From a virus, in IMG/VR virus record IMGVR_UViG_3300044837_000112, positions 1-64,000 of that record: 64,000 nt of DNA. The stretch is one strand, 5' to 3'. The notes below the pieces were generated by a model. That model was given only the letters and a program-made list of their open reading frames with translations. It made no database searches and was not told where the DNA came from. Both the position numbers and the translations under genes were made by a program. Positions 11,014 to 63,823 of the stretch are shown here, piece by piece; position 1 is the stretch's first letter, and the number at the start of each line of letters is the position of its first letter.

Positions 11014-11582
11014 TGCCAGTTCGTCGACCTAAGGTAACCGACAGTGTCTTCAGCCGTCTGAACCGACTTCTGTGGGTGCGGACGGAGAATCAGTCCATCA
11101 CTGTCTTTACGCCACCACCAGAGGGCGAGTGGCCCACCTCGTCGGTACTGGTGATGTTCCAGTCGATGAAAAACTCTACGAAGCAGTACACCATAAACCT
11201 GTCGGACATGACCGTGGAAGAGTTAGCAGTGTTCCGACAGGCAATTATCCTGGCACTCGATCTGGCTGAACCCCAGTCGCGTGAAAATGATCGCTTAACG
11301 AAGGATGGGATTCTCGAAGATGGAAACCCTGGACTCAGATTCTATCGACATGCTCCGACGGTGGTGTTTGGAAAGGGGGCGCTCGAACGACACGATCCGA
11401 GCATATACGGGGGACATGCGGAGTTTCTTTCGCGAAACGGGGCTGACATCCCTACCGCTGAAGGACTTCCCGAGCGAAGCAGCAGCGTGGCTGATCTCGA
11501 AGCGGATGACACTGGAACCCAAGACATTGCTCCGTCGCTTGTCATCCGCTCGTCTGATGGGGAAAGTGATGGGGTGTGGTGA
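11013..11582 (+). CDS. hypothetical protein overlapping the recombinase 5' end
   Basis: TGATG coupling and GAGG RBS; last 263 nt overlap 11320-12141 in another frame. Confidence 0.5.
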   Translation: MPVRRPKVTDSVFSRLNRLLWVRTENQSITVFTPPPEGEWPTSSVLVMFQSMKNSTKQYTINLSDMTVEELAVFRQAIILALDLAEPQSRENDRLTKDGILEDGNPGLRFYRHAPTVVFGKGALERHDPSIYGGHAEFLSRNGADIPTAEGLPERSSSVADLEADDTGTQDIAPSLVIRSSDGESDGVW

Positions 11583-12141
11583 TATCCTCCAGGACATCAC
11601 ACTTCCGGTGCCGGCGAAGGCAATCCCACATCCTCTCCCTGGAGGAATTCGAGATCTTCGTGCACTTCTTGGCGTCTGCAAGAGCGATCAACACCGGGCG
11701 CTTGTTGGTTGCCTTGGCTTTGAGGGAATGCGGATGTGCGAAGTACTTACGCTTCGTCCGCGCGACATCGACATGCACGACAAAACGCTGCGCATCTGGG
11801 GTAAAGGCTCCAAGGTTCGTGTCGTCCCGTTCACCAAAAAGGCACAAGAACTGATCCTGCCTGTCTATCTGGACAAGATCTTCATCGATCCCAAGGCTCC
11901 GATGATCGAGTACTCGGATCGACACGCGAGAGCCATCATCACTCAGATGGGCGTAGCTGCCGGAATCTCGCGACCGATCGCATCGCACGATCTTCGTGCC
12001 ACATTCGCTACCCTCGCCTACGCCAAGACGCGGGACGCGAAAGCAGTCCAGAACTGGCTCGGTCACGCGAGCGGGGACACCACGGCTATCTATATCGAAG
12101 TGCCGATGGATACGCTTCGCATCGTCGGCGAGATAGACTAG
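11320..12141 (+). CDS. XerC/XerD-like tyrosine recombinase (no arm-binding domain)
   Basis: core-binding GRSNDTIRAY; catalytic GMRMCE, GKGSKVR, HDLR, LGH..TTAIY. Confidence 0.9.
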   Translation: METLDSDSIDMLRRWCLERGRSNDTIRAYTGDMRSFFRETGLTSLPLKDFPSEAAAWLISKRMTLEPKTLLRRLSSARLMGKVMGCGDILQDITLPVPAKAIPHPLPGGIRDLRALLGVCKSDQHRALVGCLGFEGMRMCEVLTLRPRDIDMHDKTLRIWGKGSKVRVVPFTKKAQELILPVYLDKIFIDPKAPMIEYSDRHARAIITQMGVAAGISRPIASHDLRATFATLAYAKTRDAKAVQNWLGHASGDTTAIYIEVPMDTLRIVGEID

Positions 12142-57226: not shown

Positions 57227-57255
57227 ACTATACCATGACCCGTAAACCGTGTCAA
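57227..57255 (-). promoter_or_regulatory. consensus-like leftward promoter facing the virion operon
   Basis: TTGACA-17 nt-TATAGT with TGn extension on the - strand. Confidence 0.78.
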
Positions 57256-57423: not shown

Positions 57424-58329
57424 ATGAGCGTCCAAGAATACACTGACGATATGCTGAAGGATGTTGCCAAACTACTGGCGAAGCACTTCATTGCCAGGTC
57501 TGACGTGATGGCCCAGCAGCACCCCGACGGAGGCTACTCGCCTACCCGCGGGCCCCGTAACCCTGACGGTACACCTGGTGACCTGGCTGGCTTCTCCATG
57601 CCGGCCCTGATGAACCACCTCAAGGGTACGGCGACCCTGGGCCACTATCTGCTGAACAAAGATAACCAGTGCAAGCTGTTCGCCTTTGATATTGATATCG
57701 ACGGCATCAAGTCGGGTACGCCGAAAGAGGATTGGTGTCTGCTTCCAACCTCGTACATCGACGGCGAGTATCGCGAGTACTTCCACATCGATGGGAGGCT
57801 CGCCTGGAAGACTGATATGGCGGGATTCCAGCTAGACGGCGGGCCTACCTATACTCGGGATATGCAAATAGTGAGCCGCGACTTCCTGCGGTACCAGTTG
57901 CGCCGAGTGGCCGACGAACTGATGATCGCGATCCGAGAGAACTTGGAAATCCCGACCGTCTTCGCGTACACCGGCAACAAGGGTCTGCACGTGTACGGGT
58001 TTACTGGCCTGATGGACGCCAAAGATGTGCGTGAAGGGGCCGAAATCTGTGCGGAAGCCGCTAGAATGCGCCCGCATAAGGGGTCTAACTTCTGGAAACC
58101 GACCGATAACTTCGCTGAACCCTGCGCCCTAACGGTTGAGATCTTCCCCAAGCAGACGACCATCGGCGAGGACGGCTTCGGGAATCTGCTCCGTCTGCCC
58201 CTCGGAAAGAACCTGAAGAACCCGGAACACCCCACTTTCTTCTGTTCTGACGTGCCAGGTGGCGAAAGATCCTCTATCACCCCGGTCGATACTCTGCAGC
58301 TGTTTGAAACAGTCTTCCGAGGTCTGTAA
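57424..58329 (+). CDS. archaeo-eukaryotic primase (AEP/PrimPol) domain protein
   Basis: FAFDIDID, YTGNKGLHVY, EIFPKQ, GNLLRLPLG. Confidence 0.85.
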   Translation: MSVQEYTDDMLKDVAKLLAKHFIARSDVMAQQHPDGGYSPTRGPRNPDGTPGDLAGFSMPALMNHLKGTATLGHYLLNKDNQCKLFAFDIDIDGIKSGTPKEDWCLLPTSYIDGEYREYFHIDGRLAWKTDMAGFQLDGGPTYTRDMQIVSRDFLRYQLRRVADELMIAIRENLEIPTVFAYTGNKGLHVYGFTGLMDAKDVREGAEICAEAARMRPHKGSNFWKPTDNFAEPCALTVEIFPKQTTIGEDGFGNLLRLPLGKNLKNPEHPTFFCSDVPGGERSSITPVDTLQLFETVFRGL

Positions 58330-58449: not shown

Positions 58450-60390
58450 ATGACAGATGTGAGTACGGCGGGGACTGTAGCGGTAGGTACTACAGTCCCC
58501 GCACCGCGATCTGGCAAGTTTGCGGAGGCTCTTGCAGCCCGCCGGGCGGCGAAGGCGGCAGAGTCTGGGGTAGAGAAGTCGCTACTAGAGGCAGTAGAAG
58601 ACTTCATCCCGGACATACCACCAGACCCGCTCACGGAGTATCAGTCGAAGGTGAACGCAGCCATCGAGGAGATCACCTTCCAGGAGGTCTTCGAGTTGAT
58701 GGTCTCGATGGGGATCATCTCCAGGTCGGCTAAGCCGATCAGCTCCTGGGTCGGCGACTCCAACAAGTTCTTCTGTCCGGACCCGTCCCACGACAACTCC
58801 GGCGGCACCATGAGTGCCTGGGGTTCCCGCGAGAAGGGGAAGTGGACCTGCTCCAAAGGCTGCGGCGATGGGGCAGGTGGTGGCGACAAGTTGTCGCTGG
58901 CTAAATATCTGTTCGGCGAAGAGTTCCACGACAGATGCAACAAATTAGCTGGCGCCCTGCGTGGTGTTAAGAAGCCTGAATTTTTGGTTGGTGGCCTCCC
59001 GCCGGAGTCACCAGTCGCCCTGGTGACACCTTCGACTTCAGTAGCTTCAGCTGAAGTAGCTGAAGTCGGTCCAGCCGGACCAGGGGAAACTACAGATCCG
59101 TTGCTACTGCGTTTCGATGGGAATGCAGTCCTTGCCTTCTCGTCAGTGAAGGATTCGTTCCTTCACAAATACGTTGCCGCAATGGCGCTCAGCTCATCCC
59201 CGGAAGAATTTAATCTGCCACTAGCCATGCTCGTGATTGCACTGGTCAGTGGCCGCCGCGTACAGTTGGACGACGAGTACCCCGTGATCCCGACGATGGG
59301 CATTGTCCTTGTTGGCACCTCGGGTGATGGAAAGACGAACAGCATAAAGCCAGCCAAGAAGCTAATGAGAACTGTTGATCCAGCCGGTCCCGAGAGGTTC
59401 GGCATCAACATCGACAAGAACGTAATCTCCGGACAGGAACTCGTCCACACCTTCCGGAAGGTTGAAAAGGATCTCGAAACCGGCGCCGTAACGGAGTACC
59501 CGATCCGGGCGCTACTCGAGTACCCAGAGTTCTCCGGCTTCTTTGGCAGTACGAAGATGACTGGGTCTTCACTCAAGACGTTCCTACACGAGATGCTCGA
59601 TGGGGACGAATACCTCGGCTACGGGAGCCGCTCCGCTGGAGGCAAGGTGATTGCCCGGAACGCTTTCGGATGCGTCATCTCGACAGTACAGACGGATATG
59701 CTGTCTTCCCTGTTTACGCGGGAAGACGCCGCGTCCGGCTTCATGAACCGCTTCATTATGATCAGCGGAACAGAGAAGGAGCAGGTTGGAATCAATCGAG
59801 CTGTCATCGACAGCGATGGGTATACCGCTGCCCTGCGAGAGGTGAAGTCCTTCTGCCACGGCACGGGGCGATCGAAGCCAATCCTCTGGAACCCTGACGC
59901 AGAAGCTCTGTATAACAAGATCTATAAAGAATATCTCAAACCGATCAAGGACGCTGACCGGCGTGCGCTACTAAAGCGTATCGACCTATACTTCAAAAAG
60001 TTCTGTCTCATCTTTGCAATCAACGAGCGTTCTGAGTATGTGCTGCCACACCATGTACAGATGGCCAGACAGATGACCACGTACATCGTGCCGACAAGTC
60101 AGACCATCTCCGAGAACGTCTTCGTCGCGGACGCGAACGACATGGACGAGTGGCTCGTCCGTCGGATCGGGGCGCTGGAGCTGCTGTCCAGAGAGAAGGA
60201 ACCGACCAAGGAGCACCACGGCCCAACCGTCGCCGCACTCGGACGCGAGTTTAAGAAGAAGAAATGGACCATTGAATCCGTCAACAAGGCACTCAAGGGT
60301 CTCGAGATCGCCGGCATCATCAAGGGGATCGACGGCGGCGGCAAGCGTGGCCAGCGAACTAAGTACTACTATCTTATCGAGCCAGACTAA
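58450..60390 (+). CDS. replication protein: Zn finger + DUF3987-like AAA+ helicase + C-terminal wHTH
   Basis: CPDPSH..WTCSKGC; GTSGDGKT; SGFMNRF; GKRGQRTKYY wing. Confidence 0.75.
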   Translation: MTDVSTAGTVAVGTTVPAPRSGKFAEALAARRAAKAAESGVEKSLLEAVEDFIPDIPPDPLTEYQSKVNAAIEEITFQEVFELMVSMGIISRSAKPISSWVGDSNKFFCPDPSHDNSGGTMSAWGSREKGKWTCSKGCGDGAGGGDKLSLAKYLFGEEFHDRCNKLAGALRGVKKPEFLVGGLPPESPVALVTPSTSVASAEVAEVGPAGPGETTDPLLLRFDGNAVLAFSSVKDSFLHKYVAAMALSSSPEEFNLPLAMLVIALVSGRRVQLDDEYPVIPTMGIVLVGTSGDGKTNSIKPAKKLMRTVDPAGPERFGINIDKNVISGQELVHTFRKVEKDLETGAVTEYPIRALLEYPEFSGFFGSTKMTGSSLKTFLHEMLDGDEYLGYGSRSAGGKVIARNAFGCVISTVQTDMLSSLFTREDAASGFMNRFIMISGTEKEQVGINRAVIDSDGYTAALREVKSFCHGTGRSKPILWNPDAEALYNKIYKEYLKPIKDADRRALLKRIDLYFKKFCLIFAINERSEYVLPHHVQMARQMTTYIVPTSQTISENVFVADANDMDEWLVRRIGALELLSREKEPTKEHHGPTVAALGREFKKKKWTIESVNKALKGLEIAGIIKGIDGGGKRGQRTKYYYLIEPD

Positions 60391-60758: not shown

Positions 60759-61223
60759 TAATGCGGAGCAAAATAATGCGGAGCACGAATCTTTTTCGTG
60801 CTCCGCATTACTCTCTGTCACGGGCAATAATGCGGAGTAAATCGGCTCCTACTTATTTACTACGAATTACTTTGGCTAGTTGATCTATAAATCGGTTATT
60901 CGGAGCGGCTCCCCAAAACATAAAGGAGCACGTTTGACCTGCGGTTATGCATAGAGGAGTGCGTAAAATGCGGAGCCGTACCGTCTATACCCGTAGGGCC
61001 ATACAGGTATCAAGAAACATCAAGTACTAAATTTCTCCCCTACGGTTACCGTGTGTAGTCATCCGAGTCCTTATACGAAGACTTTGATCACGGTATACGC
61101 CTAGCTCCTAATTCCCCTAATTCTCCTCATTGCGTTTTCGCAGGTCAAACGCCATATGATCATGCTCATACTACTACTACTACTAACTCCTACTTACTTA
61201 TATATATATATATTATAGATAAT
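60759..61223. other. putative replication origin: AATGCGGAG iterons, inverted repeats, AT-rich unwinding tract
   Basis: TAATGCGGAG at 60759, 60774, 60801(-), 60828; variants at 60896 and 60966; IR 60931-60943/61139-61151; (CTA)n/(TA)n at 61171-61223; downstream of primase/helicase. Confidence 0.6.
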
Positions 61224-61418
61224 GAACCATCTGAAGACCCTAAGATGGGGGGTGTAGGCGAGGGTCTATACAACTGGCTATATCTTTCTAGATGATCATG
61301 CTTTCAGAAAAACTTGGTGTGTGTTGCGCGAGGCAAGAGAGGCCCGATTTCGTGCCCGGTTTGTCATTTTTTGTCCGGTATGCCCCGATAATTTGTCCGT
61401 TTTGCCCCGATTCTAATG

Positions 61419-61620
61419 TGGACAAGTCCACATCGGACTGTCCGTTTTGCACCGATCTGTACCATTGGTCAGTCCGATATGGCACAGATGCCCGAGTCCA
61501 CATTGGACAGGTCTACATCGGACTGTCCGTTATACCCCGATCTGTACCATTGGCCAGTCCGATATGCACGAGATGACCCTGTTCCACATTGGACAGGTCT
61601 ACATCGGACTGTCCGTTATG
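61419..61620. repeat. 85-86-bp tandem repeat, about 2.4 copies
   Basis: units start with TGGACA at 61419, 61504 and 61590. Confidence 0.85.
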
Positions 61621-61630
61621 TCGTGATATC

Positions 61631-61658
61631 ATCACCGATAGTGTGCACTATCGGTGAT
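61631..61658. repeat. 13-bp-arm palindrome
   Basis: ATCACCGATAGTG-TG-CACTATCGGTGAT. Confidence 0.85.
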
Positions 61659-61730
61659 CTAGACCATCAGATGGTCCAAAGGTATGACCATTAGCATGAC
61701 CAGCCATCGTACAGGTGTGCTATGCGAGAC

Positions 61731-61744
61731 GTTTCACGTGAAAC
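61731..61744. promoter_or_regulatory. parS: chromosome-type parS site
   Basis: perfect GTTTCACGTGAAAC inside a 20-bp palindrome (61728-61747). Confidence 0.88.
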
Positions 61745-61865
61745 GTCAAAGATCATCTTCGTGTGGTCGCGTAGGGCTAGTTGATCTTGGTCTAGTCTTG
61801 GCGCGAGACTAGTTCACATCCACCATACCGTCTGGTGGTAAGACCTTTCCAACGGACCATCTGCA

Positions 61866-61906
61866 TGACTGTCTAATGGTCCTACCATTAGACCATTAGA
61901 CAGTCA
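61866..61906. repeat. 16-bp inverted repeat
   Basis: TGACTGTCTAATGGTC / GACCATTAGACAGTCA. Confidence 0.85.
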
Positions 61907-61962
61907 GACCATTGGCACAGCGGCCAGTCAAACCAGTAGTACGTGACACAAACTAAAAAGAA

Positions 61963-62275
61963 AGTTAACAGTCCGGTAAACAACCTTTACAATTGCCATC
62001 CAAGCAACTGTAAAGAAACCTAACCCAATGGTAAACAACCTTTACAGTTGCCCATACCCAACCATCCTAGGAAGCTAGGAGGCTAGGATGCCCACCACCA
62101 GCACTGTTAAGACTCTTTACAGTAACGCAAACCTTCTTTACAATTGCATCAGCAACTATCATCGCGGCAAACATCTAACTGTTAACAAACCTTCTTCAAT
62201 AGCAAACCTTGTTAACAGTCATCCATGATCACTGTTAACAAACCTTACCGTACAGCCAACCTTCCTAACAGTCGT
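61963..62275. repeat. A/C-skewed block of GTAAA/AAACCTT/TTTACA/TGTTAACA repeats
   Basis: GGTAAACAACCTTTACA(A/G)TTGCC at 61975 and 62030; ACTGTTAACAAACCTT at 62178 and 62231. Confidence 0.8.
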
Positions 62276-62888
62276 ACCACACCCACAACCTAGCCCATCT
62301 GTCAACCAGAAACGCCGGGCAATCCACCGAACGGTCTGACATCCAGCCCTAGCGGTTGGGTAGCCGAGCCGTTCGGTCATTCCGCTAGTTGATCTACGCC
62401 CGGCCGTCCGACGTCATCCGCCAATGGCCCATCTAGACCCCCTAGCGTCGCCACCGACGGGCGTTCTAGCGCCTGGTTATAACCACACCGACCTAGGCGA
62501 TTTCTCGCGGCACGATCGATCCTAGCGCGTTTCCGCTGGTCAACCGATGTGATCATTTGTCCGTATCGGTCCGCGTAGCGCCTACGGTGATCCAGTAGGC
62601 CACCGAATGTGGCCGAAAAACCCTTGACAATCACCCATCTGGCCGATACCTCATCGCCCGTAGGCGAGCTGTCCTAGCTTCCTAGGATGCGTCGCATCCC
62701 CCAAAGATCTAGGGCACCTGGGCATCCTAGGACACTAGGAAGGTGACCCGGCTGGGCATCCTAGGACACTAGGACGCTGGCCGAAAGGTTGATCCTCCGA
62801 ACGGTTGGCCAGGGCTGACCAGAAGTCTTTTTTGTCTAGCCGTTCGACAGCCGTTCTAGCGTGCATATGCGTGTCCTAGGCACTAGGA
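62063..62888. repeat. TCCTAGG-N2-3-CTAGGA motif family, five copies
   Basis: 18-bp IR 62063-62080/62672-62689; 23-bp DR 62718-62740/62752-62774; variant 62874-62888. Confidence 0.8.
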
Positions 62889-63205
62889 TTGGCGTAGCGC
62901 CAAAGACGGAACGAAAAACGGTACGGGGTAGGGGACGGGCCAGGGGCCAGGCGCAACCTAGCGCATGCGGGCCCCGGGCTAGTTGTTCGTTGACATCTGA
63001 ATGTGCCTGGTTACTAATGGGCACCACTCTGACCAACCATGGCGCTAGCTAGCGCCCGTTGCGTGATCTCGTAGACCTATGTGTCCGGGATATCCGACAT
63101 GCCTCAGCCATGGTTTAGCCCGTAGACGGGCTGGTCACCTGACGATGACTTTGGTTACGTCCTTATGACGGGCCGTTTTGATCCTCGTACGTTTCATGGT
63201 TTCTG

Positions 63206-63219
63206 GTTTCACGTGAAAC
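63206..63219. promoter_or_regulatory. parS: second chromosome-type parS site
   Basis: perfect GTTTCACGTGAAAC(A). Confidence 0.88.
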
Positions 63220-63246
63220 ATCGAGATCAACTAAAAGGCGGCTGTT

Positions 63247-63728: not shown

Positions 63729-63823
63729 GCAGGCGAGATCAAAACGGCCCGTGATATGGACGTAACCAAATGTGTCTGGTTTGAGTCATCTAGGCCGAAA
63801 GCTGACCTAAAGGCGGATTTACC

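Follow-up and report, generated by a model that had tools for sequence, protein, structure and literature searches.

A gene-free, repeat-dense stretch of an actinophage genome as a candidate cis-acting control hub with host-type parS sites

The phage genome recorded in IMG/VR as IMGVR_UViG_3300044837_000112 (78,971 bp, 57.8% GC, 99% complete according to CheckV) contains, between a primase–helicase module and a series of small early genes, a stretch of about 2.4 kb that lacks genes (positions 60,880–63,246 of the first 64 kb of the genome, which were the DNA analysed and are here called the window). We think it probable, at roughly 0.6, that this stretch is a conserved, multifunctional control hub acting in cis, in which a genome end and packaging zone, a replication origin, early promoters and sites for the loading of host ParB are brought together. 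Its position, its collinearity with the equivalent DNA of a relative, a content of AT that is nowhere higher in the genome, promoter-like hexamers and the location of genome ends in related phages all point to functions that the phage exercises on its own DNA. Each motif block would then form its own set of cis-acting binding sites. The analysis demonstrates that the stretch is non-coding, how its repeats are built, which motifs it holds, that it is conserved and where the genomes of relatives end; the binder of each block, the roles in origin and packaging, and the benefit of ParB loading to the phage are inferred. An initial annotation had instead seen the stretch as a sponge that drains host regulators, and we return to this idea below.

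The non-coding character of the stretch is evident from several features. The spread of third-position GC is only 0.03–0.16 over most of 60,800–63,100, against 0.2–0.5 in the flanking genes. In comparison with L132, a 16.9-kb metagenomic contig, mismatches are distributed evenly over the three codon positions (0.27/0.26/0.28, compared with 0.52/0.16/0.13 for the primase), and insertions or deletions of 1–2 nt are frequent. All of this bears out the original statement that no credible open reading frame (ORF) is present, although the interval to which it was applied (61340–63000), while indeed gene-free, falls short of the true stretch at both ends. One frame of 243 codons (62269–63000), which is interrupted by 16 TAG codons and has an elevated third-position GC, was considered as a gene expressed by TAG read-through and was rejected: it is broken in L132, its substitutions show no codon pattern, and its translation is arginine-rich nonsense. 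The tetramer CTAG leans toward one frame within this interval.

The stretch is also the most repeat-dense part of the 79-kb genome. Between 61,340 and 63,000 there are 182 occurrences of repeated 9-mers, compared with 12±4 in shuffled sequences and 29 in the median genome window of the same length, and 25 different 9-mers are present at least three times, against 0.05 in shuffles and none in the median window. The proposal that this DNA is a mosaic of five motif blocks held for four of them, which are real and nearly exclusive to the stretch, so that separate arrays of operator-like motifs in non-coding DNA are indeed present. All three genome copies of ATCGGACTGTCCG are in the block at 61,365–61,620; inverted GACCAT/ACCATTAG arrays account for four of the six genome copies in the block at 61,630–61,915; and the block at 61,951–62,273 holds all three copies of TGTTAACA and 5 of the 11 copies of CTTTACA. 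The gene-free stretch likewise has 6 of the 14 genome copies of CCTAGG and all four of TCCTAGGA, and CTAG reaches 13.5 per kb (24 per kb at 62–63 kb) against 2.6 per kb genome-wide. The fifth block, of CCGAAC and TGGCCGA, is weak, as these words are not enriched (3 of 69 and 3 of 28 genome copies, respectively); despite this, two CCGAACGG/CCGTTCG inverted pairs are kept in L132. Outside the window, a second gene-free, GC-rich stretch (genome 67,157–67,677) has 20 CTAG tetramers in about 600 bp and shares the word CGTAGGCGAGCT with the hub.

How well is this DNA conserved? Neither megablast nor blastn found a match to the region among 50,697 phage records, and scans of IMG/VR and GTDB genomes based on the helicase yielded either nothing or only L132, the sole close relative found (its helicase is 50% identical). 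The gap in L132 is collinear with ours, at 62–78% nucleotide identity per segment, compared with 68–75% for the primase, helicase and TerS genes, and the first early gene cannot be aligned between the two. Conservation falls in islands of 10–22 nt, some of them repeated (TAGTTGATC in three to four places, GTAG[GC]CGAGC in three) and others not (CACTATCGGTGATC, CCTACGGTGATCCAGTAGGC, TTGACAATCA, TCCTAG-N4-CTAGGA, ACGGGGTAGGGGA, GTTCGTTGACAT and both of the parS sites described below), a pattern that fits DNA densely occupied by proteins. It is hard to reconcile these results with the notion that the stretch is functionless debris, in which decayed cassettes and expanding repeats have accumulated at a recombination hot spot. 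Such a view could draw on the 85-bp tandem repeats, which have expanded in this phage relative to L132, and on the lineage-specificity of some blocks; but at the nucleotide level the stretch is as conserved as the primase, helicase and TerS genes while the adjoining early gene has been replaced, and its layout persists in relatives whose helicases are only 22–28% identical. We regard debris as very improbable indeed.

By portal and helicase searches, the phage is a distant member of a group of long-tailed actinophages (portal 43–49% and helicase 22–28% identical) that includes Rhodococcus phage ReqiDocB7, the Gordonia phages of clusters CS (Monty, Woes), CX (Orchid) and DF (Jumbo, GordTnk2), and Tsukamurella phages TIN3 and TIN4. 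A gene-free region at the same place, 1.2–2.5 kb long and with many inverted and direct repeats, was noted in ReqiDocB7, GTE7, GordTnk2, Gmala1 and GordDuk1, phages related to the present one through the portal (43–49% identity), and was described as an unusual shared feature for which no function was proposed (Liu et al., 2015; PMC4563357). In ReqiDocB7, it is an unannotated gap of 2,484 bp at the matching place after the helicase module, with repeat blocks of its own: the motif words are different (8-mers containing GATC, and AATGAGTTGACATT), and neither parS nor a DnaA box is present. The matching layout recurs in Orchid, Woes and L132. Most of the motifs are specific to a lineage; since ReqiDocB7 and Orchid share the layout but not the words, co-evolving phage proteins seem to fit better as binders than conserved host regulators would.

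Relatives with mapped ends have direct terminal repeats (DTRs) of 184–1,182 bp (PMC5559632), and those of Orchid, Woes and Jumbo fall inside the gene-free stretch. When the ends of Orchid are re-joined, a gap of 2,072 bp results, in which a terminator is followed by the word CGCAGGTCA, TATATA- and TAC-rich DNA, TTGATCATGG (about 110 bp ahead of the DTR) and the 249-bp repeat itself, which holds its own GAATTC array; beyond it lie more repeat blocks, three 39-bp TACAAT units, palindromes, a perfect parS and the first early gene. The window has its landmarks in the same order as Orchid, CGCAGGTCA being followed by TATATA-rich DNA and then TTGATCATG, and the place at which the Orchid DTR starts is occupied in our phage by a block of iterons. 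By position, the terminal repeat of our phage would therefore begin near 61.4–61.6 kb, within the iteron block, although no terminal sequence common to the relatives with DTRs was found. The ends of the IMG/VR record are not physical genome ends: its 3′ end (78,900–78,971) consists of a run of G that is an artefact of sequencing or assembly, and both ends are assembly breaks. The alternative that the initial annotation had itself named, a terminal-repeat or pac region, is probably true in part.

Host-type parS sites are one of the motif classes of the hub. When a match to the 16-bp palindrome TGTTTCACGTGAAACA is the criterion, and the exact 14-mer core is counted, the genome has six exact cores (GTTTCACGTGAAAC), all within 4.5 kb (61,731–66,238) and none elsewhere in the 79 kb. 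The first (61730–61745, core at 61731) is a 16-mer with two outer mismatches, and occurs in L132 at the same place and between the same flanks (CAGGTGTGCTA..GAGA). The second (63205–63220, core at 63206) has one outer mismatch and lies 27 nt ahead of the ATG of the first early gene, whose ribosome-binding site AAAGGCGG is at 63234; its L132 homologue is 46 nt ahead of the first early ATG there. The third (64200) also has one outer mismatch, and the remaining three (genome 64,831, 65,685 and 66,238) are perfect 16-mers inside three unrelated ORFs, each read as the codons VSRET. The L132 homologue of the ORF with the fourth site (65% identical) has parS at the same codons, so exact L132 sites are found at homologous places in mid-gap, before the first early ATG and inside this gene, where shuffles of L132 would lead one to expect 0.04 matches. 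That parS lies inside unrelated ORFs speaks for an array of spaced nucleation points, and against sites that serve as promoters or operators. Two perfect parS 18-mers are present in Orchid, and one in Woes, in or beside the gap and just upstream of the early genes.

The chromosomes of B. subtilis and mycobacteria have exactly this palindrome as their parS (PMC2346475), so the earlier recognition of an exact host-type ParB site was correct. ParB_N, HTH_ParB and ParA domains are all absent from the phage proteome, and no ParB is present in Orchid or Woes; the phage having no ParB, the would-be binder of its parS sites is presumably the ParB of the host. In Micromonospora, Actinoplanes and Salinispora chromosomes, there are 4–9 exact parS within 2.7–5.4 kb, and in number and density the phage array matches the size of these centromere clusters. 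These genera were chosen for comparison because a 62-amino-acid HTH_17/MerR protein of the phage (window 8512–8700) is 91–96% identical to their BldC. The similarity extends to the chromosomal BldC of Micromonosporaceae, Nocardioidaceae and other actinomycetes, and the protein is, from its sequence, a developmental regulator acquired from a host, and so hints at what the host may be. No DNA similarity to 121 Micromonosporaceae genomes was found besides parS itself. Loaded at the two sites in the stretch, which open the six-site, 4.5-kb array, host ParB would come to occupy the leading, early end of the genome.

Sites of this kind seem not to be peculiar to our phage. A BLAST search of the phage collection with a doubled parS 18-mer gave 281 phage records with perfect 18-mers, including 49 Microbacterium, 34 Listeria, 23 Gordonia and 13 Arthrobacter phages, together with the phi29-like B103 and Goe1. 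Clostridium perfringens podophages had 8–12 listed matches per record, corresponding to about 4–6 sites if each palindrome was listed twice. Among the records listed, most matches were outside annotated features. This suggests, at the level of sequence matches, that host-type parS sites are widely distributed among phages that lack ParB; in the literature searched, we found no report of a host-type centromere array without partition genes in actinophages.

Could the sites serve to titrate ParB and other host DNA-binding proteins as phage copy number rises, and so disable or sense host regulation, as the initial annotation proposed? Six host-type parS per genome amount to the whole chromosomal cluster of the candidate host families, so that a replicating phage would outnumber the host sites, and there is in addition a perfect DnaA box; moreover, phi29 carries sites for two host proteins. 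However, parS and that one DnaA box are the only motifs that match known host sites, so the claim that host proteins are addressed stands for these two and not for the rest, and the remaining motifs differ among related phages that share the layout. The position, the AT-rich DNA, the promoters and the genome ends of relatives indicate functions in cis, nothing points to draining, and titration would not need an ordered, collinear architecture such as L132 keeps. A sponge is accordingly an improbable explanation.

An origin-like module may be recognized to the left of the first parS, where the AT-richest DNA of the genome adjoins the iterons. Whether the genome is scanned in windows of 60, 100 or 200 bp, the AT-richest one falls at 61,119–61,318, over (TAC)8 and (TA)12 (61160–61225), a candidate DNA-unwinding element with TATATA-rich equivalents in L132 and Orchid. 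The iteron block (61365–61620, plus strand) consists of a 22-bp unit present twice and an 85-bp unit present 2.3 times in tandem (TRF score 316), the expansion of the latter being specific to this phage relative to L132. Within it, the palindrome ATGTGGACAAGTCCACAT holds the only perfect actinobacterial DnaA box of the genome (TTGTCCACA, 61417–61425, minus strand), about 190 bp from the candidate unwinding element. In M. tuberculosis and S. coelicolor, the same word is the DnaA box of high affinity (PMC4285127, Table 1). Three DnaA-box-like words with 7/9 matches follow it in the block, and the densest 300-bp window of the genome has six DnaA-box matches with at most two mismatches, although a window with five exists elsewhere; at the homologous spot, L132 has three DnaA-box-like words (8/9, 7/9 and 8/9). 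A DnaA-assisted origin at the AT-rich DNA and iteron block is, on these sequence features, plausible, and the iterons may double as, or equally well be instead, the zone at which terminase recognizes the DNA and ends are formed. Cumulative GC skew was uninformative, as it tracks gene orientation.

Between the terminators and the iterons lie other elements. A long-range inverted repeat (arms 60931–60959 and 61123–61151, core GACCTGCG/CGCAGGTC) is retained in L132 with compensating changes in its flanks (TTT/AAA versus CGT/ACG), and one CGCAGGTCA arm occurs also in Orchid. The 9-bp direct repeats with phased AATT at 61107–61131 (2.8 copies of CCTAATTCC, plus strand) are not conserved in L132. 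They were considered (at 61107–61135) as a BldC operator, which has head-to-tail 9-bp AATTxxxxC units, and resemble it in part, AATT being phased three times, but were rejected as such, since position 9 is T rather than C. An island at 61289–61342 (TAGATGATCATGCTTT...GGTGTGTGTT, plus strand) is near-identical in L132.

A DnaA box beside a candidate unwinding element, and a parS array of chromosomal size, might also be expected of a plasmid-type maintenance region, an origin plus centromere by which the phage would persist outside the chromosome through host DnaA and ParAB, in a mini-chromosome or carrier state and possibly with entrapment in spores. The phage has a tyrosine recombinase (278 amino acids, phage-integrase family, window 11305–12141) and a BldC 91–96% identical to that of sporulating actinomycetes, and phi29 would be a precedent. 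Against this, no repressor or partition genes were found among the phage proteins screened, relatives have defined DTR ends and were obtained from plaques on Gordonia or Rhodococcus, which do not sporulate, parS is carried by Orchid and Woes, which infect Gordonia, and the DnaA-box cluster is weak. We consider such a region distinctly unlikely. Somewhat less so, though still only a tentative suggestion and on balance unlikely, is the idea that the hub itself mimics the origin-proximal part of the host chromosome, so that host DnaA and ParAB would replicate and partition the infecting DNA as if it were a mini-chromosome, and would thereby bring it into daughter compartments or spores; in that case, the hub might work together with host-derived BldC and WhiB-type developmental regulators, in an actinomycete counterpart of the spore entrapment of phi29.

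To the right of the iterons, the cis-acting hub would be concerned with early transcription. Five units of about 45 bp with promoter-like hexamers (61951–62273, plus strand) rank second in the genome for AT content and show a strong C/A strand bias. When −35 and −10 hexamers 16–18 bp apart are sought, two candidate promoters face the early genes, TTAACA-17-TACAAT (61965–61993) and TTTACA-17-TACAAT (62116–62144), both on the plus strand with 10 of 12 consensus positions, and a third, TTTACC-17-TACAGT (62035–62007), points leftward. Matches to the consensus are no more numerous in the region than in shuffles (4 versus 3.7), so the promoter reading rests on conservation: at the place homologous to 62116–62144, L132 has TTTACT-17-TACTAT, with the spacing kept and the spacer diverged, in what is a single comparison, and Orchid has three tandem TACAAT units. 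From a TTGACA-17-TATAGT site at 57,227–57,255, it also appears clear that the phage uses a promoter type resembling that of SigA elsewhere.

Rightward transcripts from the tandem SigA-type promoters at 61.96–62.15 kb would cross a conserved leader of about 1 kb, with palindromic operators, and enter the early cassettes. Chief among the putative operators is TCCTAG-N4-CTAGGA, present upstream at 62065–62090 and in a cluster at 62660–62889 (copies at 62672, 62725 and 62759, and an N3 variant at 62875); L132 has three copies, which form a perfect hairpin of 27 bp. The 16-bp palindrome TCCTAGCTTCCTAGGA (window 62672–62687) occurs also in the unrelated high-GC viral loci L159, L163, L164, L165 and L168, in L164 and L165 just upstream of a gene start, and may represent an operator class common to actinophages. 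Conserved islands on the plus strand are found at 62327–62412 (CCGAACGG...GTAGCCGAGCCGTTCGGTCATTCCGCTAGTTGATCTACG), at 62500–62636 (ATTTCTCGC..GCGTTTCCGCTGGT, CCTACGGTGATCCAGTAGGC and TTGACAATCACCC, of which CCTACGGTGATCCAGTAGGC is identical at 20 of 20 positions in L132) and at 62923–63005 (ACGGGGTAGGGGA, CGCAACCTAGCG and GTTCGTTGACATCTGAATGTG, the last containing TTGACA); the arms of a CCGAACGG/CCGTTCG inverted pair at 62797–62846, unlike its interior, are kept in L132. Nearer the iterons are a perfect palindrome with 13-bp arms (ATCACCGATAGTG-TG-CACTATCGGTGAT, 61631–61658), the right half of which is kept in L132, the lineage-specific inverted GACCAT/ACCATTAG arrays that bracket the first parS (61662–61905, arms 61662–61694 and 61873–61905) and, on the plus strand, a conserved island TAGTTGATCTTGGTCTAGTCTTGGCGCGAGACTAG (61778–61812), part of which, TAGTTGATCT, recurs at 60877 and 62386.

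With so many palindromes, might the stretch act instead as RNA, as a long structured leader or as non-coding RNAs cut by RNase III at long stems, like the cassettes downstream? Folding z-scores of −3 to −6 over 61.4–62.3 and 62.5–62.9 kb, the compensated pairing of 60931 with 61123, the inverted repeats of 29–44 nt that clamp the downstream cassettes in L132 as well as here, and the 27-bp L132 hairpin at the CCTAGG block could all be accommodated in this way. However, the z-scores are no lower on one strand than on the other, as DNA palindromes would give, conservation is in short sequence islands rather than paired columns, and the CCTAGG stem of our own phage has uncompensated mismatches. 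No Rfam family scored above noise (there were two chance matches, E 0.49), and no tRNA was found in the window. Long-range RNA clamps at 61662/61873 and 62063/62672 were rejected, as they are not kept in L132 and reflect repeated palindromic motifs; among such pairings only 60931/61123 is conserved. We therefore think it rather unlikely that RNA is the primary basis of function, while allowing that an RNA-level role, for example as a processed leader, may exist alongside the DNA-level sites.

The early cassettes are themselves of some interest. Five abut each other at genome 63,150–66,637, each clamped by its own inverted repeat of 29–44 nt (arm pairs starting at 63150/63737, 63773/64124, 64159/64615, 64645/65438 and 65463/66596); the left arm of the first, a 34-bp repeat at 63150–63183 on the plus strand (partner 63737–63770), falls within the gene-free stretch. 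The L132 early cassettes are clamped in the same way, by arms whose sequences have changed on either side, and the repeats look like RNA processing stalks. From 63,247 onwards there is a long series of small rightward ORFs. On the other side of the stretch, the structural genes (TerS, TerL and a Mu-type portal) are read leftward from 57,004, and the genes for an AEP primase (57,424–58,329) and the helicase (58,450–60,390) rightward, followed by a rightward ORF of 113 amino acids; terminator-like hairpins on the plus strand at 60774–60859 (a perfect 16-bp stem at 60774–60810, and a stem plus T-run at 60834–60859) would then end the replication operon before the gene-free stretch begins.

Several considerations count against the multifunctional cis-acting hub as we have described it. 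Only one DnaA box is perfect, the remainder being 7/9 matches, and no cluster of DnaA boxes exists in the more distant relatives; packaging, and not replication, could be what the iteron block is for; the phylogenetic footprinting is one pairwise comparison, with L132; and seven other relatives (ReqiDocB7, Perlina, Camerico, Jumbo, Eggsie, TIN4 and Mbo2) lack parS, which implies that parS is an optional component of the hub.

Comparison with better-known systems is instructive. The left end of coliphage T7 combines a terminal repeat, repeat arrays, tandem promoters for host RNA polymerase (A1–A3), RNase III sites and an origin. Our phage would resemble it in having a non-coding leading end by a direct terminal repeat, tandem host-type promoters that read into early genes, and stems between genes, but the two have no sequence or protein relationship, and the hub is about three times longer and includes host replication and partition sites. 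The virulent Bacillus phage phi29 carries five host parS (Spo0J) sites and Spo0A boxes, which are used for spore entrapment (PMC2731898). Like our phage, it is ParB-less, with several exact host-type parS (five, compared with six here) together with sites for another host DNA-binding protein; it differs in being a protein-primed podovirus of a firmicute, with a genome of 18–19 kb and scattered sites, whereas the present phage is a siphovirus of 79 kb in which parS forms an array of 4.5 kb at the early end, and spore entrapment would be proposed only by analogy. With the oriC/parS neighbourhood of actinobacterial chromosomes, the hub shares the DnaA box TTGTCCACA (PMC4285127), the parS palindrome (PMC2346475), the clustering of 4–9 parS within a few kb and an AT-rich element, and differs from it in having only one perfect DnaA box and no dnaA or dnaN genes.

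As a feature, then, the hub was already known though unexplained, and what is new is that actinophages can have an array of host-type parS, together with the module of DnaA box and unwinding element. A printed oddity of Gordonia, Rhodococcus and Tsukamurella phages thereby gains an anatomy, comprising a candidate origin, a likely genome-end zone, early promoters and conserved operator islands, and some members of the group prove to have a centromere array of host type while lacking genes for partition. Mini-chromosome mimicry, if true, would be present in the cultured Gordonia phages Orchid and Woes. Since these two grow on Gordonia terrae 3612 and are engineerable, they make the role of host ParB, and possibly of DnaA, in lytic actinophage infection accessible to test.

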